Below are positions 1,736 through 26,998 of a DNA stretch of 32,000 nucleotides, piece after piece. Under the pieces are notes generated by a model. It saw only the letters and a program-made list of their open reading frames with translations, ran no database searches and was not told the DNA's origin. The first letter of the stretch is position 1, and each line of letters opens with the position of its first letter. A program made the translations under genes and the position numbers. The DNA lies in contig NZ_CP032551.1 of NCBI RefSeq assembly GCF_009734345.1, positions 1,980,001 through 2,012,000 on the forward strand. The letters are read 5' to 3'. The stretch is from Pseudidiomarina andamanensis. Lineage in GTDB: Bacteria > Pseudomonadota > Gammaproteobacteria > Enterobacterales > Alteromonadaceae.

Positions 1736-1783
1736 TTGGATTTTTTACTTATAACTGCTCCGAATTTTCGGGGGGATTACAAA
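1736..1783 (+). repeat. Partial copy (3' 48 nt) of the ~165-bp repeat module (copy A)
   Basis: TTGGATTTTTTACTTATAACTGCTCCGAATTTTCGGGGGGATTACAAA is near-identical to 5980-6027. The core TGCTyCGAwTyTTmGGGGGATTACA is shared with 12541-12566. Confidence 0.85.
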
Positions 1784-1977: not shown

Positions 1978-2220
1978 ATGATCATCCAGCGCCCAGCCGA
2001 CTTGGCGGTACTCATTAAATCGCAGAGAAAAGCGCAAGGCTACACACAAAAAGAGCTGGCTAAGTTAACTGGGCTTTCGCAAAGAAGCGTGTCGTCCATT
2101 GAACGTACCGGAGAAATGCACACATCGACTTTGCTGAGAATTTTTGCAGCGCTCAGAATTCAGCTAAACGCAGATGCGGTGAAACAAAATACCTCAAGTA
2201 ACAGCGAGGTTATTTGGTAA
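1978..2220 (+). CDS. hipB: HipB-like XRE-family HTH antitoxin
   Basis: 80 aa with the HTH GYTQKELAKLTGLSQRSVSSIERTG. GAGG lies 7 nt upstream of the ATG. Its stop overlaps the hipA start (TAATG). Confidence 0.8.
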   Translation: MIIQRPADLAVLIKSQRKAQGYTQKELAKLTGLSQRSVSSIERTGEMHTSTLLRIFAALRIQLNADAVKQNTSSNSEVIW

Positions 2221-3524
2221 TGGGCCGACGCAAACATGAGAACACACTCTATTGCCACATGAATGATCAGTTCGTTGGCACGCTGACATCGCGGCTGAAT
2301 AATTTGAGCTTTCGATATTCAGATAGTTGGCTACAATCCAAGTTTGCACGGGCAATCTCCATATCCATGCCATTAACTGAACAGGAATATTCCGGCGAAG
2401 CGCTAAACGCTTATTTTGATAACCTATTGCCGGACAGTCCGGATGTTCGTAAAACGATTGTGGATAGGCTTGGGGCTAAAAGTACAAAACCTTTTGATTT
2501 GCTCGAAACGGTCGGCAAAGACTGTATTGGTGCATTAACCTTCGTTGCCAGTTCGGAGCCCCAGCCGGTTCCAGACGTTGAAATAATCCCGTTGAATGAA
2601 GAACAAATCGGCCAACTCGTAGCAGATTCGCGAACCGGCAAAACTCTCGGTATGCACTATGAAGATGCATTTCGTTTTTCACTTGCCGGCGCTCAAGAAA
2701 AAACGGCGCTGACTTTTTGGCAAGGCCAATGGGGTATCCCTGTAGGCCGAACACCAACCACGCACATATTGAAACCGCGGATCATAACTCGCCCAGGTGA
2801 ACCTGATTTATCGAGCAGCGTTGAAAACGAATGGTTTTGTATGCGTGTTGTTCAGGCACTTGGATTGTCGGTAGCCCATACAAGAATTGACAGCTTCAAC
2901 GGTGAAGATGTTTTGATTATTGAGCGCTTTGACAGAAAAGACATTGGGAACAAGATTTATCGACTACCGCAAGAAGATTTCTGCCAAGCGCTTGGTGTGG
3001 CAGGTAGTTCAAAATATGAGGAGCATGGTGGGCCAAGCGCTAAAGAGATCATGAATATTTTATCCACATCTACGGCTTCGGTTCGTGATCAGGATACGTT
3101 TATGTCAGCGCAGCTACTGTATTGGCTTTTCGCCGCTATAGACGGGCATGCAAAGAACTTCAGTTTGGCACTGACTCCCCATGGATACCGACTGACGCCG
3201 TTATATGACGTGTTATCAGCACATGGATTTGCACAAGTAGGCAATTTACATCCTAAGAAAATAAAAATGGCGATGGCCGTGAATAGTAAGAATCGACATT
3301 ATCATTGGCATACAATTCTTCCTCGGCACTGGGGAGCTCACGCAAAGAGTGTTGGCTATGATCCAGATCGCATGGATTCGATAATTGTGAACATCACATC
3401 CAAGTTAGAAGCGTGTCTCGATATTGCATCAGAAGAAGCTGCCTCGATAAGTGTTCGCGCAGAGCAAAGCGCGGAAGCTATTCGCAAAGGTACATTGAAA
3501 GCGCTTGAACGTTTTAAGGTATGA
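2220..3524 (+). CDS. hipA: HipA-family serine/threonine kinase toxin (type II TA)
   Basis: Carries FSLAGAQEKT (P-loop-like, Ser at the autophosphorylation-type position) and the catalytic motif IDGHAKNFS. Length is about 434 aa. I prefer the ATG at 2220, overlapping the hipB TAA, over the track's TTG at 2214. Confidence 0.9.
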   Translation: MGRRKHENTLYCHMNDQFVGTLTSRLNNLSFRYSDSWLQSKFARAISISMPLTEQEYSGEALNAYFDNLLPDSPDVRKTIVDRLGAKSTKPFDLLETVGKDCIGALTFVASSEPQPVPDVEIIPLNEEQIGQLVADSRTGKTLGMHYEDAFRFSLAGAQEKTALTFWQGQWGIPVGRTPTTHILKPRIITRPGEPDLSSSVENEWFCMRVVQALGLSVAHTRIDSFNGEDVLIIERFDRKDIGNKIYRLPQEDFCQALGVAGSSKYEEHGGPSAKEIMNILSTSTASVRDQDTFMSAQLLYWLFAAIDGHAKNFSLALTPHGYRLTPLYDVLSAHGFAQVGNLHPKKIKMAMAVNSKNRHYHWHTILPRHWGAHAKSVGYDPDRMDSIIVNITSKLEACLDIASEEAASISVRAEQSAEAIRKGTLKALERFKV

Positions 3525-3661
3525 GCTTTCTAGTAAATCAGTCGCGATTCAGTATTTTGAGCTTGAGGTCACAAATTTAGACCAACTGAGATAACTTCAA
3601 GTGGTTTGGTCCCATAGAATATTTAGTTGGTAAGTACTATTCTTCTACGAACCATTAAAAA

Positions 3662-3770
3662 TGGCACACCCGACAGGAGTCGAACCTGTGACCTCTATCT
3701 CCGAAAGCAAATCACGGGTTCGGTAGTAAATCGATAAAGCTATATTGAGCAGGGGATTAAGCGGTGTTTT
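3662..3770 (+). repeat. Diverged copy of the tRNA-Arg 3' half (3662-3709) plus a conserved island-end flank (3710-3770)
   Basis: TGGCACACCCGACAGGAGTCGAACCTGTGACCTCTATCTCCGAAAGCA differs from 26922-26970 at six positions, including a 1-nt gap. The flank is about 80% identical (48/60 by hand) to 10249-10308. Confidence 0.85.
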
Positions 3771-3910
3771 GGTTCTCAAGCTAAACATCCGTATGGAACT
3801 TAAACGCTAATAAAGCATTCCGCACCATTAATGGTTACGGGGTAACGCGTTATAAACGTGAGCCATATTATTTCAGGAAAATAAAAAAGGAATTTAAGGA
3901 GCCCTTGGCA

Positions 3911-4600
3911 ATGCGTCATAAGTTAATTTTATTGGCAGGTTTGTCAGCATTGTACTTTATCGCTGGCTGTGCTGTACCAATAGTCTACTTAAACGATTAT
4001 GAGCTTGAAGAAAGCAACTTTGAAAAGGTAAAAAACGCATTAGAAGAGAAGGGCTTTAAGGTAAATCGAGTGTCGTTAAAACCGCCTAGTAACATCCATG
4101 AATCTACAATCATAACCGGTTCGAAAGCGACCGTTGAACAGAACTATAATCAGATTATGCCGATTCTTGCAAGCTTAGGGTATTCAAACACGGATATTAC
4201 ATTCGTTGAGTCGGGAAATCACTGGTACCGTGGTGATAACATAGGTGTATACCTTTTTGATGATGGGGTTGGTGAAAAGCCCGAGAGGGAAATTATTGGT
4301 GAATACTCAAGCGATAATTGTGAATCGATGAAATCACTAATATTAAAAGCGGATGGCAATTTTAATGTTGCTTATACTTTTGGTGGTGAACTGTCCGGCG
4401 AATGGCAGATCATCTCGATGCCCTATGTGAATCTTTGGAATAAACGTACGGGTTTAAATTTTTACTATCAGATAGAGATAGAAGAGCAATCAGATTTCTC
4501 AGGTAAAGTAGATGTCATTACTTTAGTACCTCTTGATGATCAATCTCAGATTCGAGATTGTATATTTTACAAAGGTATTAGAAAGGGTAAAGCAATATGA
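3911..4600 (+). CDS. Lipoprotein of unknown function
   Basis: Signal peptide with lipobox (LYFIAGC). AAGGAG lies 9 nt upstream of the ATG at 3911, while the track's TTG at 3905 is too close to the SD. I recognise no family. The stop codon directly abuts the next tRNA-like repeat. Confidence 0.75.
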   Translation: MRHKLILLAGLSALYFIAGCAVPIVYLNDYELEESNFEKVKNALEEKGFKVNRVSLKPPSNIHESTIITGSKATVEQNYNQIMPILASLGYSNTDITFVESGNHWYRGDNIGVYLFDDGVGEKPEREIIGEYSSDNCESMKSLILKADGNFNVAYTFGGELSGEWQIISMPYVNLWNKRTGLNFYYQIEIEEQSDFSGKVDVITLVPLDDQSQIRDCIFYKGIRKGKAI

Positions 4601-4740
4601 TTCTCTCCCACAGGAATCGAGCCCGTGACCTCTGCTATCGTGATAGAGCATTTGTCAGGCATGATTAAAATCTCAGTTTAGAGGTAGAAAAAATGCCATC
4701 TAAGAAATCGTTCAACTACCGCTGGGGATTAAGCTGATGT
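4601..4740 (+). repeat. Strongly diverged tRNA-3'-half-like repeat (4601-4650) plus a gapped copy of the island-end flank
   Basis: TCTCCCACAGGAATCGAGCCCGTGACCTCTGC aligns with CACCCGACAGGAGTCGAACCTGTGACCTCTGC. Downstream, AAATCGTT and GGGGATTAAGC match the flank motifs of the other two copies. The flank overlaps the fic stop codon. Confidence 0.6.
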
Positions 4741-5811
4741 CATGAGTTTCATCAGGCGAGGATTCACAAATAGCTTTTCTTTACCTGAAGTTGTCTCTTC
4801 TAATATGCCAATTTCAACGAGCTGTTTAAGGTAAACAGAAGCGGTTTGACGCTTGGCGATATCGCGTTCCACTAAATTACTAATTCGACAATAAGGCTGC
4901 TCAAAAATCACTTGAACAAGCTCATAGCTGTATATTTTCGGTAATTGCTCGCGAATCCTGTTTGTAGTCTGCTCCATTAACGCTCGAATAGCGGCGATCT
5001 TCTCACAAGTCCAAAGCGACGTTTGCTCAACACCACGCAACATGAATACCAGCCAGTCTTCCCAGTTTTGTTTCTGAGTTACTTGATTCAGTAATCGGTA
5101 GTAATCTTGCTTGTGCGCAACAATGTAACGGCTAAGGTACAATATCGGCAGTGTTAAAAGCTTTTGCTCAATCAAATAGAGGACATTTAGGATTCTGCCA
5201 GTACGCCCATTGCCATCATAGAAGGGATGAATTGCTTCAAATTGATAGTGGCTCACCGCCATTTTTATCAGCGGATCGATAGTATCGGTGCCATGCAGAA
5301 ACTGCTCCCAATTACTGAGTAAATCGCGAATGACCTGTTCGCCGACCGGTGGTGTATAAACCACTTCATTTGTTGTTTGATTACCAATAATGGTGCCAGG
5401 TAGCTTCCGTAATTCCATCGCCGTATTCTTCAATGTACTACACACTTCAATGGCTGTTGTCGTACATAGAGGTTTGCGCTCTAACTGCGTGAAGCCTTGA
5501 TAGAGTGCTGTGCGATAACGAAGTGCTTCTTTGGTTGCTTGATCAGCACCGCTGTCTTGTTGTGCATATCGAAATAGTTGATCTGTTGTGGTGACGATAT
5601 TTTCAATTCTAGAACTGTCTTTTGCCTCTAAAAGAGGAAGCAAATTGATGAGCATACTTTGATTAGGGAGTAACGCACCAGCTTGTTTCAACTCGGCAAG
5701 CGCAGCGCGAGCAGAGATGCATGCCTTCAATACGTCGCGCGTCTCGATTTGCTCTAATTTCGGCGGTAACATAGGCAAATCGTTATAGGGTTGGTCAGCT
5801 TGCCAAGTCAT
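4729..5811 (-). CDS. Fic-family protein (AMPylase-type) with an N-terminal inhibitory-helix motif and a C-terminal wHTH-like tail
   Basis: Fic motif HPFYDGNGRTGR. (S/T)xxxE(G/N) inhibitory motif SSRIEN. The N-terminus MTWQADQPYNDLPMLPP is typical of this family. I prefer the ATG at 5811 (AGGA 8 nt upstream) over the track's GTG at 5838. Confidence 0.9.
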   Translation of the reverse strand: MTWQADQPYNDLPMLPPKLEQIETRDVLKACISARAALAELKQAGALLPNQSMLINLLPLLEAKDSSRIENIVTTTDQLFRYAQQDSGADQATKEALRYRTALYQGFTQLERKPLCTTTAIEVCSTLKNTAMELRKLPGTIIGNQTTNEVVYTPPVGEQVIRDLLSNWEQFLHGTDTIDPLIKMAVSHYQFEAIHPFYDGNGRTGRILNVLYLIEQKLLTLPILYLSRYIVAHKQDYYRLLNQVTQKQNWEDWLVFMLRGVEQTSLWTCEKIAAIRALMEQTTNRIREQLPKIYSYELVQVIFEQPYCRISNLVERDIAKRQTASVYLKQLVEIGILEETTSGKEKLFVNPRLMKLMTSA

Positions 5812-5855
5812 GTTTAAATTCCTTTGGAAATTCGACACATTATGATGTTGTTTGT

Positions 5856-5884
5856 AGTGTAGGTCGATTCCATCGACACGACAA
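5856..5884 (-). promoter_or_regulatory. Candidate sigma70 promoter for fic, embedded in TCGAC-type repeats
   Basis: The minus strand reads TTGTCG-N17-TACACT, with the -35 at 5879-5884 and the -10 at 5856-5861. The spacer contains ATCGAC/GTCGAT motifs. Confidence 0.3.
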
Positions 5885-6027
5885 GGTTATTTGTCGATTA
5901 TTTATTGTTTTATCGACATGAAGGTTTGTTGGGTGATTTAAAGGATGTTTGGGTTGTATCCGACGTCACTGAGGTGGAGTTGGATTTTCTACTTATTACT
6001 GCTCCGATTTTTCGGGGGGATTACAAA
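5863..6027 (+). repeat. ~165-bp repeat module, copy B
   Basis: Aligns over its whole length with 12406-12566, roughly two-thirds identity by eye. It contains ATCGACA, TGTCGAT and ATCGACA (7-bp inverted repeats) and ends in TGCTCCGATTTTTCGGGGGGATTACAAA. Confidence 0.85.
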
Positions 6028-6129: not shown

Positions 6130-6264
6130 ATGACGGAAGCAGAAGTATCTCGAATTAAAGGTATTGGCGTGCAAACTTTATATAATTGGCTAGATAAAAC
6201 CAAATTACAGGGGAAAGGTCAGCCATCGCTTATCAGTGGCAATTGCTTGAACGTCAGTCAATGA
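6130..6264 (+). CDS. Short HTH-like ORF, possibly a remnant of an excisionase/AlpA-type or transposase OrfA-type N-terminus
   Basis: MTEAEVSRIKGIGVQTLYNWLDKTKLQGKG resembles the '...STLYNWLKK...' HTH of small DNA-binding proteins from mobile elements. The ORF is short and I see no clear SD. Confidence 0.25.
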   Translation: MTEAEVSRIKGIGVQTLYNWLDKTKLQGKGQPSLISGNCLNVSQ

Positions 6265-8099: not shown

Positions 8100-8261
8100 A
8101 ATTGCCATTCCTCCGAGAACATAGGGGTAAAGAGCAGGCCTCTTAAACCTTGGAGGAAATTTTAGGTGGCTATGAAAATGTATGTTAGTGACAGAAGTCA
8201 CAACTTTAAAAATGACTTTTGGCCTATTGGTGATTTACGCAATTGCTTGCATACTCAGGCA

Positions 8262-9392
8262 ATGGAATTGAAAAACTTAAAACTAGATGCTGATCGACTA
8301 AGCGGTATTGGCACCGTGCTGGTAGTGGCCGCTTTCGACTTGTGGCTGTTACTCTCAACCACCAACGCAAGCACACCAAGGCTTACTTTGTTGGCGTTAC
8401 TTTATGCAACTTTTACGACTACATTTTTCATCAATACAAACGATGAAGTTCCGCTCTCAAGATGGCCCCGGCACCTAATAATTGGTGGTCAATTTGTAGT
8501 CATTTGTTCAATAATGTACACCACACCCAATATGTTTAGTGCCATTTTATTAGTGGTGTGGTCGGCGCAGCTCCCTTATTTTATGCCTTTTCGCTGGGCC
8601 CTTTGGCTCACGCCACTGTGGAGCTTTGTTGCGTGGAGTACGCACTTTCTGCGTTGGCAGCCCGACGGCATTGTAATTACTGGGGTGCTGTTCACTACGT
8701 TTAATGTGTTCGCGCTCATTATGATGGAGTCGAGGCGTAATGCAGAATTTCAAAAAGAGCGCGCAGAGCAAGCGAATCGAGAGCTTATTGCTATGCAGTC
8801 ACTTGTGAAAGAGGCGTCGCAGCAGGAAGAACGGCTGCGTATTGCCCGCGATATTCATGATCTTGTAGGCCATCATCTTACCGCGCTTACGGTGCAACTC
8901 CAGGTGCTGGCGCGTAAGGTACCTGAAGCTCTGAAAGTTGACGTAGAGCGTTCTCGTGCTATTTCGAAATTACTGCTCGCAGACGTGCGTGTTGCCGTAA
9001 GCGAAATGCGCGAACATGAACAACTGAATTTGCGCGAAGCACTTGAGGCTTTGGTCGAAAAATTACCGGGCATTGAGGTTTCATTGGCTTTCCCGAACAA
9101 AGTTGCGGTACTCAATTTAGAACAAGCGCTAGCAATATTGCGCGGTGTGCAGGAAAGCGTGACCAATAGCGTGCGACATGGCAAAGCCACCAAGGTAGGA
9201 ATTGAGGTGCAGCAATCTGAACGCGAACTTGTAGTGCGTGTTAAAGACAACGGGCAAAGCAGCAAACCGATCGAGTTTGGCAATGGCTTGAACGGCATGC
9301 GGGAGCGGCTAAAAAGCTTTAATGGCACTGTAACTGCTGAGCGCCAAGCGCGCGGCGTTTTGGTGTGTCTTAGAATACCGGTGGGTTTATGA
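8262..9392 (+). CDS. Membrane-embedded sensor histidine kinase (HisKA_3 / NarL-partner class)
   Basis: H-box ARDIHDLVGHHLT. N and G boxes TNSVRHGKA and DNGQS...GNGLNGMRERL. N-terminal polytopic domain without a large periplasmic loop. The start is uncertain between 8166 and 8262. Confidence 0.85.
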   Translation: MELKNLKLDADRLSGIGTVLVVAAFDLWLLLSTTNASTPRLTLLALLYATFTTTFFINTNDEVPLSRWPRHLIIGGQFVVICSIMYTTPNMFSAILLVVWSAQLPYFMPFRWALWLTPLWSFVAWSTHFLRWQPDGIVITGVLFTTFNVFALIMMESRRNAEFQKERAEQANRELIAMQSLVKEASQQEERLRIARDIHDLVGHHLTALTVQLQVLARKVPEALKVDVERSRAISKLLLADVRVAVSEMREHEQLNLREALEALVEKLPGIEVSLAFPNKVAVLNLEQALAILRGVQESVTNSVRHGKATKVGIEVQQSERELVVRVKDNGQSSKPIEFGNGLNGMRERLKSFNGTVTAERQARGVLVCLRIPVGL

Positions 9393-10069
9393 GCACTTTG
9401 CACTCACCCGAAAAGCACCGAGTTATGTTAGTCGATGACCAAAAATTAATTCGACAAGGCTTAGCGAGCTTATTGTCGCTTTCAGCCCATATTGAAGTAG
9501 CACATGAAGCAGCAGATGGCGAAGAGGCACTTGCGTGGATCAAAGCCCATGGCATCGACATTGACATAATCCTGCTCGACTTAAGAATGCCAAAAATGAA
9601 TGGTATTCAGCTTCTACAAGCCATGCGTGCAGAAAATATAAAAATTCCGGTTTTGATTCTGACCACCTTTGACGACCATAATATGCTTCTTGAAGCGTTG
9701 AAAGCAGGGGCGCGAGGGTACCTACTTAAAGACGTAGAACTCGAAATGCTAGTGAGTGGTATTGAGCGAATAGTCGCTGGCGAGTCAATGATTCAACCTA
9801 CCATTACCACCTCGCTTTTAAACGGATTACAAGGCTTACATTCCGAATTTGAGGCCTTTGCCGCGCCCGAGGCGCTTTCCGCTAAAGAGCTAGAAATATT
9901 ACGCCTTATTGCCGCCGGTTGTTCCAATAAAGAAATTGCCGACGCTCTTTTTAAGTCGGAAGGCACCGTTAAAAATCAAGTAAGCGCCATTATGGCGAAG
10001 CTTGGTGTGAGAGACCGGACGCGAGCAGTTTTAAGGGCTATTGAGTTGGGACTTATCGGGTTTTGTTAA
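9389..10069 (+). CDS. NarL/FixJ-family response regulator (REC + LuxR-type HTH)
   Basis: REC domain (VMLVDDQ...DIILLDLRMPKMNG) and a LuxR HTH (LSAKELEILRLIAAGCSNKEIADALFKSEGTVKNQVSAIMAKLGV). ATGA overlap with the kinase gene. Confidence 0.9.
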   Translation: MSTLHSPEKHRVMLVDDQKLIRQGLASLLSLSAHIEVAHEAADGEEALAWIKAHGIDIDIILLDLRMPKMNGIQLLQAMRAENIKIPVLILTTFDDHNMLLEALKAGARGYLLKDVELEMLVSGIERIVAGESMIQPTITTSLLNGLQGLHSEFEAFAAPEALSAKELEILRLIAAGCSNKEIADALFKSEGTVKNQVSAIMAKLGVRDRTRAVLRAIELGLIGFC

Positions 10070-10199
10070 CGCTAAGGGAACCTATAGCTGCTCTCTGTCG
10101 CTAACTAGCTCCTTAAAATAACAAGTTCTAATCTTAAGTACCTCAGTGGTGGCGGCTAATTAACGGTATTATCGGACAGACGGCTCTGAAATTCTTTGA

Positions 10200-10308
<109 letters not shown>

Positions 10309-10553: not shown

Positions 10554-11612
10554 TTAACGCCGTCCGTTCAAAAAGCTATTAATTAGATCTTGCTGCTCGG
10601 CTAAACGCTCAATGATGCCGGCAAAGCTATCGGGGGCACTAAAGAACATTCCACCGCTTACGGACTGGTCGTAATCTTTTTTGATATCTTCGAGCAGCCG
10701 CCCCGTTGGAATTAGCACCAACTTACCGGAAAGAATGGCTTCAAAGGAAACGCCTCGAGTAGCCCACCTTGCCGACTTCATCGCTACCACGTCTTGCAGT
10801 GCTTCCATGTTTTGGTATGAGCCTTCATAGAGATTTTTCAGAATGCAGTCTACATCATACCAATGTCTGGACAACCGCACCGTATCAAGCGGGTTTTCTT
10901 GCGTGCAGAATTGATGAAGTGCGGTTAGCTTTTCCCAAATAATGTAATCCGGGTGGTAAGCCTCCACTGCAGCTATCGGTAACGTATGGGACTCTGCAAT
11001 CGCATCTATTTCTGACAGGTAAGTCGTTACGGGTTTAGAAACCGTCGGCCGGCCCCGGTTACGGCCGCCAAATTCGAGCAGTACATGCTCTAACTGATAA
11101 GAATCATCCTGGAATGCCACATGTGGAAAGTGAATGTCGATTTTCTCACCACCAGAGTCTTCTTCAATTTCAGCGCTGAGTCCCTCAATGCCATAATCTG
11201 AAAGTCTGCTATTCAATCTTTGAACAAACTCGTTGGTCCAGCCTTCTAAACGCTCTCTCTGCTCACGTCTAAATTTACGTTGCTGACTCGGATTCCGTGT
11301 TGTCTGCGTCCAAGCAGCAGCTTCATCATCTGATTCTGCTAAGTCAGCCCAATGAATCGATAAATCAATATCCTCAGAGAATCGCTCAATGGTGCTATAG
11401 CACTTGCTCAGGGCTGTTCCACCTTTGAAGGCCACATCATGGCTATCTAATAAATCCTCTTCGTATAGCAACCGCAAAATTTCGGTTACCCAAATATCTT
11501 TCTCTAAAAAATTAGCGGCCAAACCTCTTGCGGAGTTCTGCGCAGCATATTCGAGGATTAATTTTAGTTCCGCTCGTTTCGCTTCAGTTCTATAGTAATC
11601 AAATATGTCCAT
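10554..11612 (-). CDS. abiEii: AbiEii/AbiGii-family nucleotidyltransferase toxin (type IV TA / abortive infection)
   Basis: DVAFKGGTALSKCY...ERFSEDIDLSI is the nucleotidyltransferase signature of this family. The ATG at 11612 overlaps the abiEi TGA by 1 nt (TGATG). Confidence 0.85.
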   Translation of the reverse strand: MDIFDYYRTEAKRAELKLILEYAAQNSARGLAANFLEKDIWVTEILRLLYEEDLLDSHDVAFKGGTALSKCYSTIERFSEDIDLSIHWADLAESDDEAAAWTQTTRNPSQQRKFRREQRERLEGWTNEFVQRLNSRLSDYGIEGLSAEIEEDSGGEKIDIHFPHVAFQDDSYQLEHVLLEFGGRNRGRPTVSKPVTTYLSEIDAIAESHTLPIAAVEAYHPDYIIWEKLTALHQFCTQENPLDTVRLSRHWYDVDCILKNLYEGSYQNMEALQDVVAMKSARWATRGVSFEAILSGKLVLIPTGRLLEDIKKDYDQSVSGGMFFSAPDSFAGIIERLAEQQDLINSFLNGRR

Positions 11613-12232
11613 CACACTGACGCGCTCTCAACTTGCGCTAGCTTTTGGCGCCATTGCGAATTCAGCGTAGAATGCTTGAGGTTGCTGAGAACACGCTCCT
11701 TCTCACTTCCTGTCAACGATAATCGCTTAAATACCTTGCGTAACTGCTCGGGCTTGAAGTGTTCTGGCTCCATCACCGAAAGGCCTCGAAGAATCATACC
11801 TTCAGGTTGGTTCAGCCACTTAAGCTTACTCGATGCGACGTGCTTCACTTCAACAGTTGAATTCCCCACTTTAAATTCACGCGATGGGCCGTTCGTCCAA
11901 TAAATGGTTCGGGCAGGAGCCTGAGTTTGCAGTCCAATGCGATATGCCGCTTCAAAGCCATTCGAAACAAGTTTGTACCCGTAATTTCTCGCCCAAGCTT
12001 TTGCGACCTCTTCTGGGCTGGGCATTACCTTCGCCCCCGGTAAGTTTTCTATTGACTTAGGACGAACGTAAAAGCCTTTTGACACACGCACAATCTCGCC
12101 TGACTTCGCCAATCGGCTAAAAGCCTTCTGGACAGCACTTTCCGTGCCTAGCTCATAAAATCCCTCTATGGAAAAAGGAACACCTTTTCTCATGCGAGCA
12201 ATCCGAGACTCAATTTGTGCGGTGATAGACAT
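11612..12232 (-). CDS. abiEi: AbiEi-type (DUF6088-like) antitoxin / transcriptional regulator
   Basis: 206 aa, translationally coupled upstream of abiEii. The N-terminal region (RMRKGVPFSIEGFYELGTESAVQKAFSRLAKSGEIVRVSKGFYVRPK) looks like the wHTH of this family. Confidence 0.7.
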   Translation of the reverse strand: MSITAQIESRIARMRKGVPFSIEGFYELGTESAVQKAFSRLAKSGEIVRVSKGFYVRPKSIENLPGAKVMPSPEEVAKAWARNYGYKLVSNGFEAAYRIGLQTQAPARTIYWTNGPSREFKVGNSTVEVKHVASSKLKWLNQPEGMILRGLSVMEPEHFKPEQLRKVFKRLSLTGSEKERVLSNLKHSTLNSQWRQKLAQVESASV

Positions 12233-12405
12233 TGAGATAATCCTGACTATGAAATGCTGTGTTGATTAAATATACACCTTTAATTGCCCAATGTACATGG
12301 TCATTGATGTCAGGATTGTTTGATCCACCTAACCAATTATTTGGGTAAGGGTAAGACGGTGGCTGTAAATACTTCTAAAGACTCGAGATGCGTACTTTTA
12401 CCTAT

Positions 12406-12566
12406 GTCGAGTCTATCGACGCAACAGGATTGTTTGTCGATTATTTCGTGTTTTATCGACATGAAAGGCCGTTGGATGAAGTAAAAATATTTGGGTCATA
12501 TTCTGCATTTTTTCGCTATTATTCAACTTTCCCCCTAAAATTGCTTCGATTCTTAGGGGGATTACA
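12406..12566 (+). repeat. ~165-bp repeat module, copy C
   Basis: Co-linear with 5863-6027 and has the same ATCGAC / TGTCGAT / ATCGACA arrangement. It ends in TGCTTCGATTCTTAGGGGGATTACA. Track ORF 12388-12591 lies inside it. Confidence 0.85.
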
Positions 12567-12867
12567 GCGATCCCGAACTGGGAAAAGTTGAAACTCGGTT
12601 TATTTAGATAAAATATCAACTAAAGTTATGGTAAGGCCTGATTTTTCCCGACTCTTTTAAGGTCACAAGACACTCTACGAGTGGGCTGTATTATTTGATG
12701 GGATAGTTACACTGGAACGTTAATACTTGATGTCTTGAGAGGGAAAATGTAATCCTCAACTTAATTAGAAACTATCAAAGATAATCCACCTTACTGTGAA
12801 TGAGTGTCCTGAAACGAATGGACTCTTCACACAAATTCACGATTTAAATTAGAAAGTGTGGGACGAC

Positions 12868-14657
12868 ATGGCAAAATATGAAGTAAAGCAAACAGCGATC
12901 AGTCAAATTCTTGCTGACGTTCGTAGCGATAAAATAGCAATTCCGGAACTACAACGACCATTTGTTTGGAAAACATCTCAGGTCAGGGACTTAATTGACT
13001 CACTTTACAACGGTTATCCGGTTGGTTATCTGATAACGTGGCAATCTGTTGGCGCCAAATTAAAGGGGGGAGCTGTCGCAGCACATCAACAAATACTAAT
13101 CGATGGCCAACAACGAGTAACAGCGTTGAGGGCCGCAATTGCGGGACAAACGGTGATTGGTAACCGTTATGAAAAAAAGCGGATCGCTATTTCGTTTAAT
13201 CCTGTAACGGAAGAGTTTGCGACGAGAACGCCAGCGATTACCAATAGCTCCCAATGGATTCACGATATTAGTGAGTTTTTTCCGGTTCCAGTCAGCTGAG
13301 CTTTCTGAGAAATTATTTCGCTAAAAATCCAGATGTTGATCAAGACCAAGTTGAACAAGCCTCGGCGAGACTCGCCGCTGTTGAGCATGCGCAAGTAGGT
13401 GTCATTTCATTGGCAGACGATTTGGATGTAGAAACGGTTGCAGAGATCTTCGTTCGGATCAATGCCAAAGGTGTTCCGCTATCAAGTGCTGATTTTGTAA
13501 TGAGTAAAATTGCCACGTACGGCAATGAAGGGCGCAATCTTCGGAAGCTAATTGATTATTTCTGTCACCTGACGGTCTCTGGGCACGCATTTGATGATAT
13601 TAAAGAGAACGATGAAGAGTTCGCAAAATCGGAGCATATTAGGAAAATTCAGTGGTTAAGTAATCAAACGGACGAGTTATTTCAACCTGACTATACCGAT
13701 GTCATTCGTATTGCCGGTCTAGTTGGATTTAGTCGTGGTAAAGCCGGAGCAATTGTTAGTGAGCTATCCGGGCTTGACCCACAAACGAGAAAAATTGATG
13801 AAAATCTTATTCCAGCCGCGTATTCTCGTTTTGCGGAAGCATTAGATCTACTTGTGAGTAAGACGCATCTCGAGCGATTTGTAATGATGATCAAGTCTGC
13901 TGGGTATATCGATGCCAGCATGATTGGGTCAAAGAATGCATTGAATTTCGCATATGCACTTTACCTGCGCCTTCGGTTGGACGATCAGCTGAATGAGGGA
14001 GAGAGAGCAAGAATTGTAAAACGCTGGTTCGTTATGACATTACTGACCGGAAGAGCCGTGGGAAGCTTTGAATCCACGTGGGAAACTGACTTACGTCGTA
14101 TTAAGGACCACGGTGCGGAACAATACTTACGCACTCTTGAAGCCTCAGTTCTAAGTGATAGTTTTTGGGATGTAACTTTAGTTCAGGAGCTCGAGTCACC
14201 AAGCAAGCGTAGTCCTGCATTCCAAACATATTTAGCAGCAAGAGTTGCAAAAGGAGGGCGGGGATTCCTTTCAAAGTCGATTAATATCGCACAGATGATC
14301 GAGGGGCATGGCGATATGCACCACATAATTCCCAAGAATCACCTTATTCGTCATGGATTCCCGAAACAGGGAGATTACAACCAGATTGCAAACTTTGCGT
14401 TGACAGAAACAGCAATCAACATCGCGATTAAAGACCTACCACCGAAAGAATACATGTTAATGGTTCTTGAACAGATTGAATCCGGAAATTTAAGACTTGG
14501 CGAAATTTGTGATCGAGAAGATTTACAGAGAAATTTAGCCGAAAATGCTATTCCTGAGCTCATATTCAATACTACCGCAGAAAATTACAAAGAGTTCCTA
14601 GCGGGACGCCGTTTTTTAATGGCAACAATGATCAAAGAGTATTATGACAGCCTTTGA
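12868..14657 (+). pseudogene. DUF262-DUF1524 (GmrSD-like type IV restriction) nuclease gene, split by a frameshift in a T6 run at 13276-13281
   Basis: ORF1 carries IPELQRPFVW and DGQQR (13102-13116). ORF2 carries the rest of DUF262 (EIFVRINAKGVPLSSADF) and an HNH-like DUF1524 motif (GDMHHIIPKNHL...NQIANFALTETAINIAI). The ORF2 frame is open from 13275. One extra T in the run would fuse both into about 600 aa. Confidence 0.75.
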
Positions 14658-19683: not shown

Positions 19684-22600
19684 CTAACGGCTCAGATCCT
19701 TAATTTTTTGTTTCGAAAACCAAGGATAGAGCACGGGTAAGATAACCAGTGTTAGCAATGTCGCAGACACCAAACCGCCAACAATGACGGTGGCCAATGG
19801 ACGCTGAATTTCAGCGCCTGCGCCGGTTGCAAACAGCATGGGAATGAGTCCTAACGCTGAGGTTATTGCCGTCATTAATACCGGGCGTAGTCGAGACCAT
19901 GCGCCATCAAACACGGCATCATTAACTGCATGCCCATCGGTTATTCTCTGGTTTATACTTTCGACCAGAACCACACCGTTTAGTACCGCCACACCAAACA
20001 GTGTGATGAAACCCACGGCGCTGGGCACCGATAAGTACTGTCCTGACACATAGAGTGCCACAATACCACCGATGACTGCCAACGGTACATTCACCAAAAT
20101 CAACATGGCTTGACCCATGGTGCCGAAAGCAAAATAAAGCAGCAGGGCGATGAGTGCCAGCGATATGGGAACGACAATGGACAAGCGCTCCTGTGCTCGT
20201 TGTTGACTTTCGAACTGGCCACCAATGTCGACTGAGTAACCGGTTGGTAAATCCACCTTCTCGTCAATCGCCTTCCTAATATCGGCAACCACGCTGCCCA
20301 TGTCACGACCCTGAACGTTCGATTGAATTACAACGCGACGCTGTACATCATCACGACGGATTTGCGGTGGTCCTGATTCAATTGCAACGTTGGCGACTTC
20401 GCCTAAGGTTACCCAGGCCCCCGAGGGAGTTAACAAGCGTAACGAGCGAATAGACTCCGGCGTATCGCGGAATTGCTTGGCCAACCGCACGTAAATATCA
20501 TAGCGCTCATTACCGCGAATGATCTGGCCTGCCGAAGCGCCACCCAAGCCATTGTCGACAACGCTAAGTACATCGGAGACATTTAAGCCGTAGCGTGAGA
20601 GTTGTTGGCGTTTCGGCGAAACCACCAGTTGTGCTTCACCTTTTATTTGCTCCATCGCTACTGCAACGGCCCCGTCAACCTGCTTGACGGCACTTTCTAT
20701 TTCCTGGCCTTTACGGGCCAACACGTCAAGCTCGGGTCCAAATAGTTTGATGGCTAGCTGCGATTTTACACCTGAGAGCAGTTCATCAACCCGTGTTGCA
20801 ATAGGTTGTGAAAAATTAAACAACAAGCCTGGGTGATCATCTAGTTTTGCCTCCATTTTTTCTTGTAAGGCGTAGCGATCCGATGCTGTTGTCCATTCAG
20901 ACTGCGGCTTAAGACCCACATATATCTCGATGTTGCTGATAGGCTCTGGATCGCCGCCCACTTCGGCTCGTCCAATGCGACTGAGTGCGTAGGTGGTTTC
21001 CGGGAACGACATCAGGATTTTTTCAAGCTTCGGAGCCACCTCTAAGGCCGTTTCAAGGTTAGAGGAGGGGGCTAATGTCACGCGAATATTAATCGTGCCT
21101 TCTTCCAGTTCGGGCGCAAACTCTGTGCCGAGACGAGGCACTAACACCAAAGCGCCGACAAACAGCACACCGGCCAGGGCAATAACAGCCTTTTTACTGC
21201 GTAACGCCACCGATAATAGTCTTTTATAACCATTATCTAGTGGTTTAAGCAGCTTATTTTCACGAGGCTTAATACCCCGACTGAAAAAGTAACTGGCTAA
21301 TGCCGGTACAACCATGATGGCCACAAAAACCGCGGAGATAATGGCCAGCATAATACTGATAGCCATGGGCTCAAATAATTTAGCTTCAACACCCTGAAAA
21401 CTAAACAGTGGCATAAAGACCACCAAGATAATCATGGCGGCAAAGAATACCGGTCGTGCCACTTCGTTAGCCGCTTCCTTAACTCGCAGCTTGATACCAT
21501 GACTATCGAGTTTGGCTGCCTGAGGATCCGGGTCGCGGTGCTCTGTGCGTTGCTCGGCGTCGTCTTGGTGTTCACTATCCGGACGACTTAAGTGCTTAAA
21601 GATATTTTCAACCATCACCACGGAGCCGTCGACCAGCATACCAATGGCAACAGCAATCCCGCCCAGCGACATCAGGTTAGCCGACATGCCCATCGCGGAC
21701 ATTACCATCAGGGCAATGGCGATAGAAACGGGAATGGACAGTAACACTAAAAAAGTAGCGCGTATGTTGAGCAAAAACAGTGCTAATACTGCGATAATAA
21801 ACACAAAGGCAATGAGCAGTGAATACGCGACCGTAGATACGGCTTTTTGTATTAAATCGGCCTGATCATAATACGGCTCAAAGGTAACACCCTCGGGTAA
21901 TGCTTGCTGAATAAGCGGAATGCGCTTTTTAATACCGTCGATGGTGGCTTTGGTATTCGAGCCCATGCGTTTGAGCACAATACCCGACACCACTTCGCCC
22001 AACTGGTTGACCTCGCCGTCGACTTTACGCGACATTGAGACCGCCCCCTGGCGAATTTCACTGCCGATTTCGACGTCGGCAACCTGTCCCAGTGTTACGG
22101 AAACGCCGTCAACGGTTTTGAGCGGTATTTGTCGTATTTGTTGCAGGCCTTTTTTACCGCTATCCAACCAGCCGGTGCCGCGAATAACCAACTGCTCCTG
22201 ACCGCGGGGCATATACCAACCACCAACGTTACCGTTATTCTTGTTGACCGCGCCCATGACGTCTTGCTGGGTAAGGTCGTAAGACAGCAGCTTGGCGGGA
22301 TTGAGGTTAACCTGATATTGCTTAACTTCACCGCCAAAGGACAAGACTTCGGTAATTCCCTCAACGGGCATCAGTAGCAGTTTAACCACATAGTCGTTAA
22401 GACTGCGTAGCTCCATGCTACTGACACCAGAGCCCGGCTCGGCAAGTAGCAGATACTGATAAACCTGGCCGAGACCGGAAGAGTTAGGGCCCATTTCGGG
22501 CGTGCCGACTCCCTCTGGAATCAACTCCTTTGCCGCTTGCAGCCGCTCGAATACCAGTTGCCGGGCAAAGTAGATATCGACACTCTCGTCAAATACCACG

Positions 22601-22881
22601 GTAATGCCCGATAAACCTGTTTTTGAGATTGACCGAACTTCTTTGACGTCGGGCAGGGCATACATCACCGACTCTATCGGATAGGTAATAAGCTGCTCGA
22701 CTTCGGTCGCTGCTAATCCTGGTGCTTCCGTATTTACCGTTACCTGAACGTTGGTAACATCGGGAAAGGCATCCAGATTAAGTTTGGGAATAATAAAAAA
22801 TGACGCAATGCTGATGCTGAATAAAGCCAATACCAATAACAGGCGATTGGCGACAGCAAACTGAATAATGCGCTGAAACAT
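19684..22881 (-). CDS. czcA: HME-RND efflux pump inner-membrane subunit (CzcA/CusA family)
   Basis: 1065 aa with a 12-TM RND architecture and typical CzcA-like N-terminal and periplasmic-loop sequence. Confidence 0.95.
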   Translation of the reverse strand: MFQRIIQFAVANRLLLVLALFSISIASFFIIPKLNLDAFPDVTNVQVTVNTEAPGLAATEVEQLITYPIESVMYALPDVKEVRSISKTGLSGITVVFDESVDIYFARQLVFERLQAAKELIPEGVGTPEMGPNSSGLGQVYQYLLLAEPGSGVSSMELRSLNDYVVKLLLMPVEGITEVLSFGGEVKQYQVNLNPAKLLSYDLTQQDVMGAVNKNNGNVGGWYMPRGQEQLVIRGTGWLDSGKKGLQQIRQIPLKTVDGVSVTLGQVADVEIGSEIRQGAVSMSRKVDGEVNQLGEVVSGIVLKRMGSNTKATIDGIKKRIPLIQQALPEGVTFEPYYDQADLIQKAVSTVAYSLLIAFVFIIAVLALFLLNIRATFLVLLSIPVSIAIALMVMSAMGMSANLMSLGGIAVAIGMLVDGSVVMVENIFKHLSRPDSEHQDDAEQRTEHRDPDPQAAKLDSHGIKLRVKEAANEVARPVFFAAMIILVVFMPLFSFQGVEAKLFEPMAISIMLAIISAVFVAIMVVPALASYFFSRGIKPRENKLLKPLDNGYKRLLSVALRSKKAVIALAGVLFVGALVLVPRLGTEFAPELEEGTINIRVTLAPSSNLETALEVAPKLEKILMSFPETTYALSRIGRAEVGGDPEPISNIEIYVGLKPQSEWTTASDRYALQEKMEAKLDDHPGLLFNFSQPIATRVDELLSGVKSQLAIKLFGPELDVLARKGQEIESAVKQVDGAVAVAMEQIKGEAQLVVSPKRQQLSRYGLNVSDVLSVVDNGLGGASAGQIIRGNERYDIYVRLAKQFRDTPESIRSLRLLTPSGAWVTLGEVANVAIESGPPQIRRDDVQRRVVIQSNVQGRDMGSVVADIRKAIDEKVDLPTGYSVDIGGQFESQQRAQERLSIVVPISLALIALLLYFAFGTMGQAMLILVNVPLAVIGGIVALYVSGQYLSVPSAVGFITLFGVAVLNGVVLVESINQRITDGHAVNDAVFDGAWSRLRPVLMTAITSALGLIPMLFATGAGAEIQRPLATVIVGGLVSATLLTLVILPVLYPWFSKQKIKDLSR

Positions 22882-22892
22882 ACAACCTCCTG

Positions 22893-24038
22893 TTAGTGGT
22901 TATGTGGGTCAAAACCGCCTTTAGCGATTTGTGAGCGAACGAAAAACGCGCCGTTGTCTACGTATTTTGTGCCTTCGTTAACGCCTCGAATAACTTTCCA
23001 CGGACCCTTTTCATCAACCAATTCGACTTTCTTCGGTTCAAACTTTCCGGGTTCGTGCTCAATGAATATCTGCCAGTCACCATCAGATGCCCGCATTAAG
23101 GCTGAGTCCTTAACTGCAAGCACCGGTCCATCCGACTTAACTGAGAAATAAACATCCGCAAATAAACCAGGGTGTAATTGGTCCTTTTCGTTATTTACCG
23201 CAAGTCGTACCGTTCGGGTGCGGGTTTTATGGTCTATTGTGTGGCCTTCCTGAATGACTTTTGCCGCAAAGCGCTGATTGTCGACACTCACTGTAACAGG
23301 ATCACCAAACTGCACACTAAGGTCAGCTGAGCCTGGTAGACGAGCATTAACCCACAAGGTTTCTTCTTGCAGCACTTCAACCAAGTGATTACCGGCATTA
23401 ACTTGCTGGCCTTGCTTGAAGTTATCGCTAACCACAATCCCGCCAATTTCTGAGGTCAGTTGGTATTCGCCGATAGGGTAGTTAGCTTTACTTAAACGCT
23501 TAATGTCGCTGGCTGACATACCAAATGCTTTGAGTTGCGCTTGCGCTGAGGTAAAGGCGTTTTTCGCTTCAACAAAGCGTTTTTCACCAACCGTTGACTC
23601 ACCGAGTGACTGCACGCGTTGCCATTCGTTAAGTGTGACCAAATACTGACTTTGCGCCTCCGCCATGGTGGCGCTGAAGAGGGTGGCTAGTGGTTCACCT
23701 TTTTCGACGTGGTCGCCAATACTGACAAAACGTTTGAGAACGGTCGAATCGATGCGCGGACTCACGATATAGCTATTAAAGTCGTTAGCAACCACCTCGC
23801 CCGGAGCATAAACCGGGTATTCAATAACTTGAGTTTGCAAGGTTCGCGTGGTGATATCCGCCATGGACAGCTGCTTGCTGGATAGCTCCACGCCTGCACT
23901 TTCCTTATGTTCACCTTGCTCGTGTTTGCCTTTTTCTTTGTGGGTATCTTCTTTTTCGTCGTGTCCGTGTTCATCCTGCGCCATAACCGAAAAGCTCAGC
24001 GCAAGTGCTATTGCTGCGTATAAAGGTTTTACTGACAT
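22893..24038 (-). CDS. czcB: RND membrane-fusion (periplasmic adaptor) subunit with a His-rich N-terminal region
   Basis: Signal peptide, then QDEHGHDEKEDTHKEKGKHEQGEHKE, then MFP-like barrel and lipoyl regions. It lies immediately upstream of czcA. Confidence 0.85.
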   Translation of the reverse strand: MSVKPLYAAIALALSFSVMAQDEHGHDEKEDTHKEKGKHEQGEHKESAGVELSSKQLSMADITTRTLQTQVIEYPVYAPGEVVANDFNSYIVSPRIDSTVLKRFVSIGDHVEKGEPLATLFSATMAEAQSQYLVTLNEWQRVQSLGESTVGEKRFVEAKNAFTSAQAQLKAFGMSASDIKRLSKANYPIGEYQLTSEIGGIVVSDNFKQGQQVNAGNHLVEVLQEETLWVNARLPGSADLSVQFGDPVTVSVDNQRFAAKVIQEGHTIDHKTRTRTVRLAVNNEKDQLHPGLFADVYFSVKSDGPVLAVKDSALMRASDGDWQIFIEHEPGKFEPKKVELVDEKGPWKVIRGVNEGTKYVDNGAFFVRSQIAKGGFDPHNH

Positions 24039-24041
24039 CGT

Positions 24042-25292
24042 TTACTCTCCAATCTCTGCGTTTGTTGGCTGGCTTAACGGCGATAACGTCAGTGCTTTAC
24101 TGAGTTCGCCCGAACGGTACAACCATTCAATGGCGGCCAACCGATATTGTGTTTGCAGCGCTATCCCTGCAAATTGGCTATCGAGCTGCTGTTGCACAGC
24201 GGTGAGGTAGTCTGTGGTGGATAGGTCACCGGCGAGCCAGGACTGCTCAATCACCTGCATCGACTCATCCTGCCGAGATTGAAAGTCTCTTTGCCAGCTT
24301 TGCCACTGTTTTTTCACAAAACGATAATTGTTAAGAGACGATTTCAGTGCTGCTTGCCATTGTTGCCTTAGTGCAATCAAACGTTTTTCTTCAGCAACAG
24401 CTTCGCTATTGGCTGCGCGCACCGCATCGCTGTAGTTATTGCGAACCTGTAGTGGAATGCTGAATGATAAGCCAATTACTGTTTCGTTATCGCTCTCGCC
24501 CGCTTCGACGCCTACGGTTGGGTTGGCGGTGGTTAACGAGCGTTTCCAGTCGACATCGGCGCGCTTTAATTGCCATTGCAGGTAAGCGGCTTTTAACGCT
24601 GGATGTTGTTGCCAACGAGCCGTTAACGCAGGTTCAACGTTAAATAGCTCCTCATTAATGGAGAGTTGACCGACATCAATCGTGGTTAGCAGAGCGTTTA
24701 ACTCTGCTTCAGCGGATTGCAGCTGTTGATAAGCCGCTGCCGTTTGTTGCAGTTGCCGACTTAGTGCGAGTACCGTCAGTTGTTCGTCGACGGCACCTAA
24801 GTCACCGGCTTTACGTCGTTCGGCAACCAAGCTTATCGCCTGTTTAACGATTTTCTCTTGTTGCTCGGCCAGTGCGGAACGCTGTTTTGCATCCAGCCAT
24901 TGCACATAGGCATTCAACAGAGTTTTAGCATGCGATGTCGCCGACTGGCGATAAATACTCACTGCCATAGCCGTCATGGCGTCACTCTGACTGGCTCGTG
25001 CTTCATTGCGAGTGCTCCAGTCCAGCGTTTGGCTTAGGCCAACAGTGTAATTATTGATGTCACCCTCGCGCTCTAAGCGTGACGATAAGCTAGGGTTGTA
25101 CAAAGGCTGATTTAATTGTTTGCCCTGTTGGATCAGCGCTTCAGCCTGCTGTTGAGCGGCTTCAACACTGGGGTGTTGCTGCACAGTTTTTTGCCATTGC
25201 TCGGGCAACTGTTGTGCATTGGCGTAGCTTGAACTTATTGCCAGACTTACGGCAATAAACAAGCGTTTGCTATGTGTCGAAAACGGACCCAT
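24042..25292 (-). CDS. czcC: Outer-membrane factor (TolC/CzcC family) of the RND system
   Basis: 416 aa with a signal peptide and two coiled-coil-rich OEP-like repeats. It sits 3 nt upstream of czcB. Confidence 0.8.
   Translation of the reverse strand: MGPFSTHSKRLFIAVSLAISSSYANAQQLPEQWQKTVQQHPSVEAAQQQAEALIQQGKQLNQPLYNPSLSSRLEREGDINNYTVGLSQTLDWSTRNEARASQSDAMTAMAVSIYRQSATSHAKTLLNAYVQWLDAKQRSALAEQQEKIVKQAISLVAERRKAGDLGAVDEQLTVLALSRQLQQTAAAYQQLQSAEAELNALLTTIDVGQLSINEELFNVEPALTARWQQHPALKAAYLQWQLKRADVDWKRSLTTANPTVGVEAGESDNETVIGLSFSIPLQVRNNYSDAVRAANSEAVAEEKRLIALRQQWQAALKSSLNNYRFVKKQWQSWQRDFQSRQDESMQVIEQSWLAGDLSTTDYLTAVQQQLDSQFAGIALQTQYRLAAIEWLYRSGELSKALTLSPLSQPTNAEIGE

Positions 25293-26921: not shown

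Positions 26922-26998
<77 letters not shown>

Follow-up and report, generated by a model that had tools for sequence, protein, structure and literature searches.

In type IV AbiE toxin-antitoxin systems, the promoter of the wHTH repressor AbiEi contains inverted repeats to which AbiEi itself binds. For SoFic of Shewanella oneidensis (SO_4266 / mloA), a July 2026 preprint reports that the dimeric but not the monomeric protein binds the 300 bp upstream of its own gene, with the strongest binding in the 100 bp nearest the start codon (fragment F1) and none to a composition-matched random fragment; the resolution is that of 100-bp fragments, no motif is named, and repression lies outside the tests made there (10.64898/2026.07.09.737422). 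CccR of Yersinia pseudotuberculosis, a dimeric Fic-HTH toxin, acts as the repressor of its own gene; its autorepression is mediated by inverted repeats near the -35 and -10 boxes, and its relation to SoFic is distant (29% identity at 45% coverage) (PMC9755527).

The window (the whole stretch of 32,000 nucleotides of Pseudidiomarina andamanensis that was analysed here) holds three related sequences, copies A, B and C, which the sequence-only reading had taken for a single repeat family of about 165 bp. They are composed instead of two unrelated elements joined together: the unit is an autoregulatory operator of the SoFic type attached to the scar of an IS3-family insertion sequence (IS), with one relic (C) and one solo scar (A). 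It is not a new RNA, a new small protein or a new mobile element, and an apparent new repeat family is removed from the list. That the array upstream of fic is the promoter-operator of a SoFic-type fic gene, and that the 3' end of the unit is an IS3-family scar, is considered very probable. The features concerned are listed in Table 1.

Table 1. Features of the window discussed in the text (positions are those of the window; strand given where assigned; IRL, left terminal inverted repeat)
Feature	Position	Strand	Description
Solo IS3-type IRL scar, copy A	1736..1781	-	Outer end 1781, faces hipBA
hipBA	1978-3524		
Direct repeat 1	3661..3770	.	3' 50 nt of tRNA-Arg (3661-3710, 86% identity) plus 60-nt arm
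Lipoprotein gene	3905-4600		
fic	4729..5811	-	SoFic-like class II Fic AMP-transferase with C-terminal wHTH; Pfam Fic_N, Fic, SoFic-like_C
Very probable fic promoter/operator array, copy B 5' part	5831..5918	-	Layout common to fic orthologues and to SoFic-bound S. oneidensis DNA
Spacer, operator to IS end	5926..5983	.	Unlike the IS interior and unlike fic upstream regions of other genera
IRL scar, copy B	5975..6025	-	Outer end 6025, reads TGTAATCCCCCCGAAAAATCGGAGCAG...; identical to the IRL before orfA/orfB in relatives
Two-component system	8166-10069		
Direct repeat 2	10199..10308	.	Exact 3' 50 nt of tRNA-Arg (10199-10248) plus 60-nt arm
abiEii-abiEi operon	10554..12232	-	Pfam AbiEii; DUF6088 + AbiEi_4; sits where fic would be relative to C
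Relic operator, copy C 5' part	12405..12461	-	TGTCGAT-N13-ATCGACA intact (12435-12461); palindrome 12405-12421 degenerate, 2 mismatches
Diverged IS3-type IRL scar, copy C	12525..12566	-	Reads TGTAATCCCCCTAAGAATCGAAGCA...; about 70-76% identity to the IS IRL
GmrSD-type gene	12856-14657		Split into two ORFs; frame open across the break in G010 (L020)
Large efflux-like ORFs	19684-25292		After cation-efflux (CDF) genes
tRNA-Arg(CCG)	26922..26998	-	Intact, island anchor
Further window genes			mer genes; HindVP-type restriction enzyme

Copies of the repeat were searched for in the whole genome (2,414,343 bp), as the sequence-only reading had suggested; A, B and C were found where it had placed them, and there was no fourth copy. 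Across 83 nt, the identity between B (5860-5942) and C (12403-12485) is 80% (E = 9.7e-16), while A (1731-1783), rightly described as the terminal part only, matches just 5975-6027 of B, with 91% identity across 53 nt and 94% in its 48-nt core (1736-1783; E = 2.2e-14). The end-to-end alignment of B and C that had been described is somewhat overstated: identity is 82% for 5860-5925, 70% for 5984-6027 and only 56% for 5926-5983 between them, against 86% between the same spacer and a hipBA-linked copy (L018) in the relative G016. To the left of 5860 the similarity of B and C is at chance level. The outer pair of 7-bp inverted repeats in B, TGTCGAT (5892-5898) and ATCGACA (5912-5918), is separated by 13 nt rather than by the 14 first counted. 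Two elements had been missed: a second inverted repeat in B, GGTCGAT-TCC-ATCGACA (5862-5878), whose counterpart in C is TGTCGAG-TCT-ATCGACG (12405-12421), and a half-site TTCGACA (5831-5837) near B. At the other end of the unit, TGTAATCCCCCC is found on the minus strand, exact in A (1770-1781) and B (6014-6025) and with one mismatch in C (12555-12566). The heptamer ATCGACA occurs 17 times on both strands of the window (1-32000), against 3.35 expected from dinucleotide-preserving shuffles; 12 of the 17 occurrences lie outside B and C, mostly within genes, and the excess is probably explained by codon usage.

The gene adjoining copy B is the sole fic of the genome. Its product aligns with the PDB SoFic chains 9tch and 3eqx over residues 1-359 (phmmer, E = 7e-173) and, as an orthologue of SoFic, is about 72% identical (tblastn) to close Shewanella-type orthologues; its true start is likely the ATG at 5811 (MTWQADQPYN...), which is preceded by AAGGAA. 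Read in the sense of fic, the distal part of the array consists of TGTCGAT (5918-5912), 13 nt, ATCGACA (5898-5892) and a further 13 nt, and the proximal part of the palindrome TGTCGAT-GGA-ATCGACC (5878-5862) followed by the half-site TGTCGAA (5837-5831). A sigma-70 promoter of fic, a call that is a consensus scan prediction only, is placed on the minus strand at TCGACC (5867-5862), 17 nt and CATAAT (5844-5839). The predicted -35 box overlaps the right half of the palindrome and the proximal half-site lies directly past the -10 box, and the sites overlap the predicted promoter within about 120 nt of the fic start codon. A Fic protein with a wHTH is encoded next to copy B, but not next to C, where abiE is found instead, or A.

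The motif is conserved and is tied to fic in other genomes. In three genomes of the same genus, fic orthologues are directly preceded by the first 70-90 nt of B (in two of the three, DNA identity runs through fic at 87-89%), and in five other genera of the family the 5' part of B likewise precedes fic; at the fic upstream region of genomes from other genera, no IS end was found. In the sense of fic, the layout common to the orthologues is an optional ATCGACA, 13 nt, TGTCGAT, 13 nt, ATCGACA and 13 nt on the distal side, then the palindrome TGTCGAT-N3-ATCGACA, about 24 nt, TGTCGA(T/A), about 22 nt and the ATG. Across families of the order, no Fic orthologue with an identity of about 61-66% or more was without this array, and the motif also tracks fic in core-like contexts adjoining yicC-rph (L032, L048). 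Fic paralogues whose identity to the window Fic is 59% or less fall into subfamilies that each have a different repeated palindrome upstream, and operator and Fic-wHTH subfamily seem to change in step; these subfamily-specific palindromes provide ready operator/protein pairs for specificity studies. Examples of paralogue operators (L072-L085) are repeats of ATATGTATAGAAAATTAANNTTTCTATACATA, of TTAACCTAT and of GGTGC..GCACC.

A pattern scan for the palindrome only was performed on all species-representative genomes, and 80 loci were fetched; because about 70 chance matches were expected (our own estimate), only those palindrome loci that also hold a Fic were used. A Fic homologue is present at 35 of the 80 loci; at most of them its start lies 20-250 nt downstream of the palindrome, and these 35 belong to beta-, gamma- and alphaproteobacteria, a cyanobacterium, Flavobacteriaceae and Phycisphaeraceae. 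The Fic of Pseudidiomarina terrestris, one of the palindrome matches, is 92.5% identical to that of the window. In four distant genomes (L170, L103, L120, L102), the palindrome is located just downstream, and not upstream, of the fic homologue.

The promoter DNA of S. oneidensis (Table S2 of 10.64898/2026.07.09.737422) reads ...GCTATCGACATGAG...CATGTCGATTAAC...ACATGTCGATTGAATCGACATAAGC...TTATGTCGATAAAAG...TTTAAAC, with sites and spacing as in the window, and the best-bound fragment, F1, contains ACATGTCGATTGAATCGACATAAGC and TTATGTCGATAAAAG. Both loci have ATGTCGAT-N3-ATCGACAT, a proximal TATGTCGAT and distal half-sites, at equal distances from the ATG; the window sites match those in the promoter DNA bound by SoFic, at the 100-bp resolution of the binding. 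Unlike in S. oneidensis, the window has an IS scar beyond the distal side of the operator, and it contains a further copy, C, that has no fic. The S. oneidensis promoter DNA also has TGTATAGATA..TATCTATACA further upstream. CccR is alike in combining a Fic domain with a C-terminal HTH; its operator differs from that of the window in sequence and geometry (AGATAATCAT-N26-ATGATAATCT). By analogy with the experiments on SoFic and CccR, the half-sites, among them the palindrome over the -35 box and the half-site just past the -10 box, would be bound by a dimeric Fic via its C-terminal wHTH, and transcription of fic would thereby be repressed; the window Fic would be expected to bind exactly the sites described here. 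Among the candidates put forward at the outset, a protein-binding operator is very probably right for the ATCGACA/TGTCGAT half of the unit, for which the C-terminal wHTH of Fic, one of the two binders proposed, is the best candidate.

The likely recognition element of SoFic is (A/G)TGTCGAT-N3-ATCGACAT, with extra half-sites spaced about 20 bp (two helical turns). This comparative definition of a SoFic operator is a useful by-product, the published binding data being at 100-bp resolution. With a definition at the level of the motif, the dual role proposed for SoFic-type enzymes, as EF-Tu AMPylators and as transcriptional autoregulators, is therefore directly testable with defined site mutants. 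In a scan of the whole genome for a Fic regulon, the perfect pattern TGTCGAT-N13-ATCGACA was present at B and C and absent elsewhere, and the remaining palindrome matches, which have 2 mismatches, seem to be chance occurrences.

Copy C is a relic of such an operator, from which the promoter-proximal part and fic are gone: it is without a -10 box, a proximal half-site, a ribosome-binding site or a fic gene. No fic remnant was detected between C and abiEi by tblastn, and local DNA alignment of this interval was at chance level. The abiE genes, 170 nt from C, have a promoter-like site of their own (promoter scan, 12297-12269). Near-identical C copies were found in G010, where the only Fic is a 46%-identity paralogue, and in G016, which is 99% complete and carries two C-type copies yet no SoFic orthologue; L043, a C-type copy of G016 with 76% identity, is likewise joined to the abiEi start. 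The distal pair TGTCGAT-N13-ATCGACA is perfect in the diverged copies B, C and L043, of which C and L043 are without fic. This could hint at a function independent of fic, but with three sequences chance would account for it equally well.

That C is still a working operator, to which the resident Fic or AbiEi would bind so as to tie abiE or the neighbouring GmrSD gene to Fic levels, is unlikely. The genome does hold both fic and C, and the distal pair, perfect in C and L043, is otherwise present in this genome only at B; however, C-type copies persist in G016, which is without a SoFic orthologue, the palindrome of C is degenerate and its -10 box lost, more than 100 nt separate C from the predicted abiE promoter downstream of it, and the heptamer is present within 400 nt upstream of none of 11 abiEi homologues in other genera. 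The last count also speaks against AbiEi, the second binder that had been proposed. C is like an AbiE operator in lying upstream of abiEi, and unlike one in that its motif follows fic, not abiEi, and in its position well upstream of the predicted abiE promoter. It is likewise unlikely that C and L043 were kept because their distal pair still works, with the resident Fic coupling the AbiE abortive-infection module or GmrSD to Fic levels; if true, C would represent cross-regulation between two toxin systems, made by promoter re-use.

The other half of the unit is of a different nature. Its 3' end, TGCTCCGATTTTTCGGGGGGATTACA, comes from an IS3-family insertion sequence, of which it is the left terminal inverted repeat, and the candidate "transposition end" of the sequence-only reading was correct for this GGGGGATTACA half. 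Among 56 related genomes searched, the last ~42 nt of B (about 5984-6025) were found at up to 8 places per same-genus genome, many of them ~290 nt from contig ends, as with assembly-breaking repeats. These IS copies match only positions 130-171 of the unit used as query, and their outer flank, which begins exactly at TGTAAT, is different in every one. In relatives they read TGTAATCCCCCCGAAAAATCGGAGCAGTTATAAGTAGAAAATTCCGTTAAACTAAAACGAAGGAGTTTTCT-ATG, where the ATG is the start of an orfA of 88 aa (Pfam HTH_Tnp_1, E = 6.5e-24), followed by an orfB with an rve domain (rve/rve_3); the right end, ...TGCTTAAAATGGGGGGATTACA (terminal ...GGGGGGATTACA), makes an imperfect inverted repeat with 5'-TG...CA-3' termini. 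The stretches retrieved are contig ends, solo ends or internally deleted copies, the latter including L026 and L027. The ends in the window resemble IS3-family elements, multicopy and often contig-breaking in relatives, in their 5'-TG...CA-3' terminus; unlike full IS3 elements, in which orfA and orfB follow, the window holds left ends of 45-55 nt only, without transposase or right end.

No integrase or transposase gene was found in the window, and no intact IS copy or cognate transposase in this genome, where the nearest relative of orfA is distant (54% identity over 50 aa) and located elsewhere on the chromosome; A, B and C are therefore scars, and the IS scar is inert here. In A, B and L018, the last being a longer, 91-nt B-like version situated before hipBA in G016, the IRL passes into non-IS sequence at the same junction, ...GAAAATCC followed by AA, and this shared junction points to one ancestral internal deletion. 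The GGGGGGATTACA end represents the left inverted repeat, the initial 45-55 nt, of an IS3-family IS; this IS would once have been present upstream of fic and would have lost its interior by deletion.

Several observations were made on the same IS and its surroundings. Solo left ends of 40-56 nt, followed by unrelated sequence, are common in the genus (L033, L034/L036, L035, L037/L038, L055). The locus L040 (G014:C1, about 1391950-1391981) has, within a tyrosine-integrase-like frame, a perfect palindrome of 32 nt, TGTAATCCCCCCGAAAAATCGGGGGGATTACA, equivalent to two IS ends back to back without interior. Just outside the B scar, a small ORF (6130-6264) matches HTH_17 (E = 0.004), with HTH_Tnp_IS630 and HTH_Tnp_1 below threshold, and may be another mobile-element remnant; a 23-codon ORF to the right of copy A has no Pfam match.

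The same data bear on a second alternative, in which the unit would be the functional end of a non-autonomous cassette derived from IS3 (a MITE or mobile insertion cassette), in which fic or abiE would be passengers and for which an IS3 transposase would act in trans. In B, C and L017 the IS end points inward to an operator and a toxin gene, which occupy the place of orfA in the IS, and the genus has many solo left ends whose interiors vary. We nevertheless regard this as very improbable: an opposing end was not found around fic and abiE (at most 2 mismatches in 12 nt, or at most 7 in 27 nt), the right end is absent from the window, and the three window ends are co-oriented, so that the unit is not a MITE or insertion cassette. 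The genome has no cognate transposase, and in most genomes the operator, but no IS end, accompanies the fic orthologues.

A structured small RNA or cis-regulatory RNA is a still poorer account of the unit and can be given hardly any weight. The plus-strand folds are somewhat more stable than those of shuffled sequences (z = -2.9 for B and -3.5 for C), but this stability is due to the DNA inverted repeats, and the folds predicted for B and C differ in their 3' halves. The analysis of covariation proposed in the sequence-only reading gave no compensatory change in 14 candidate pairs across 17 sequences, the changes present being ones that break pairs, and the module has no Rfam match, either at the gathering threshold or with E up to 1; the distal sites, moreover, are upstream of the predicted -35 box of fic. 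Conservation "at the DNA or RNA level" is accordingly retained for DNA, the half-sites being kept in sequence without compensatory change, and dropped for RNA, together with the small RNA as a candidate. A small protein gene can practically be dismissed: the 67-codon frames of B and C are both open and their first 20 codons had been found to look alike, but stops occur in frame in 13 of 17 orthologous copies of B, in keeping with the earlier non-coding argument, the motif VD.ID..VD..YRH is the mere translation of conserved half-sites, no Pfam family matches, and the B/C alignment requires indels. Integrase arm-type sites were also considered and rejected, the window having no integrase and the motif following fic in the yicC-rph contexts too.

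With the unit read as a SoFic-type operator joined to an IS3 scar, its repetition can be placed in the setting of the window, an island region built up by accretion on the downstream side of tRNA-Arg(CCG). The segment 3661-10198 (6,538 nt) is bounded by direct repeats of 110 nt, 83% identical, and is absent from G016, where hipBA and abiE are 1.25 kb apart. Each direct repeat joins a tRNA fragment to an arm: that of direct repeat 1 includes about 24 nt related to the fic 3' flank plus stop codon of same-genus genomes, and that of direct repeat 2 agrees at 22 of 24 nt with the sequence 3' of fic in Pseudidiomarina terrestris and in G021. B and C have the same order and orientation relative to these repeats, and the spacing between direct repeat and module is nearly equal in the two units (2199 versus 2204 nt), although their contents are unrelated.

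In the simplest history, an island end would once have consisted, in the orientation of the window, of a tRNA fragment, the fic 3' flank, fic (minus strand), the operator, the spacer and the IS scar, and tRNA-Arg would then have come to carry two such ends in tandem. At the one with C, abiE would have taken the place of fic and of the promoter-proximal part, and in A only the IS end would survive. We infer that the repetition reflects shared descent of a joined segment made of IS scar, spacer, operator and fic. The window illustrates how IS decay and gene replacement shape toxin/defence islands at a tRNA gene. Directly downstream of fic, at 4607-4650, a second tRNA-like 3' fragment (CCCACAGGAATCGAGCCCGTGACCTCTGC) was observed, which is unlike tRNA-Arg(CCG).
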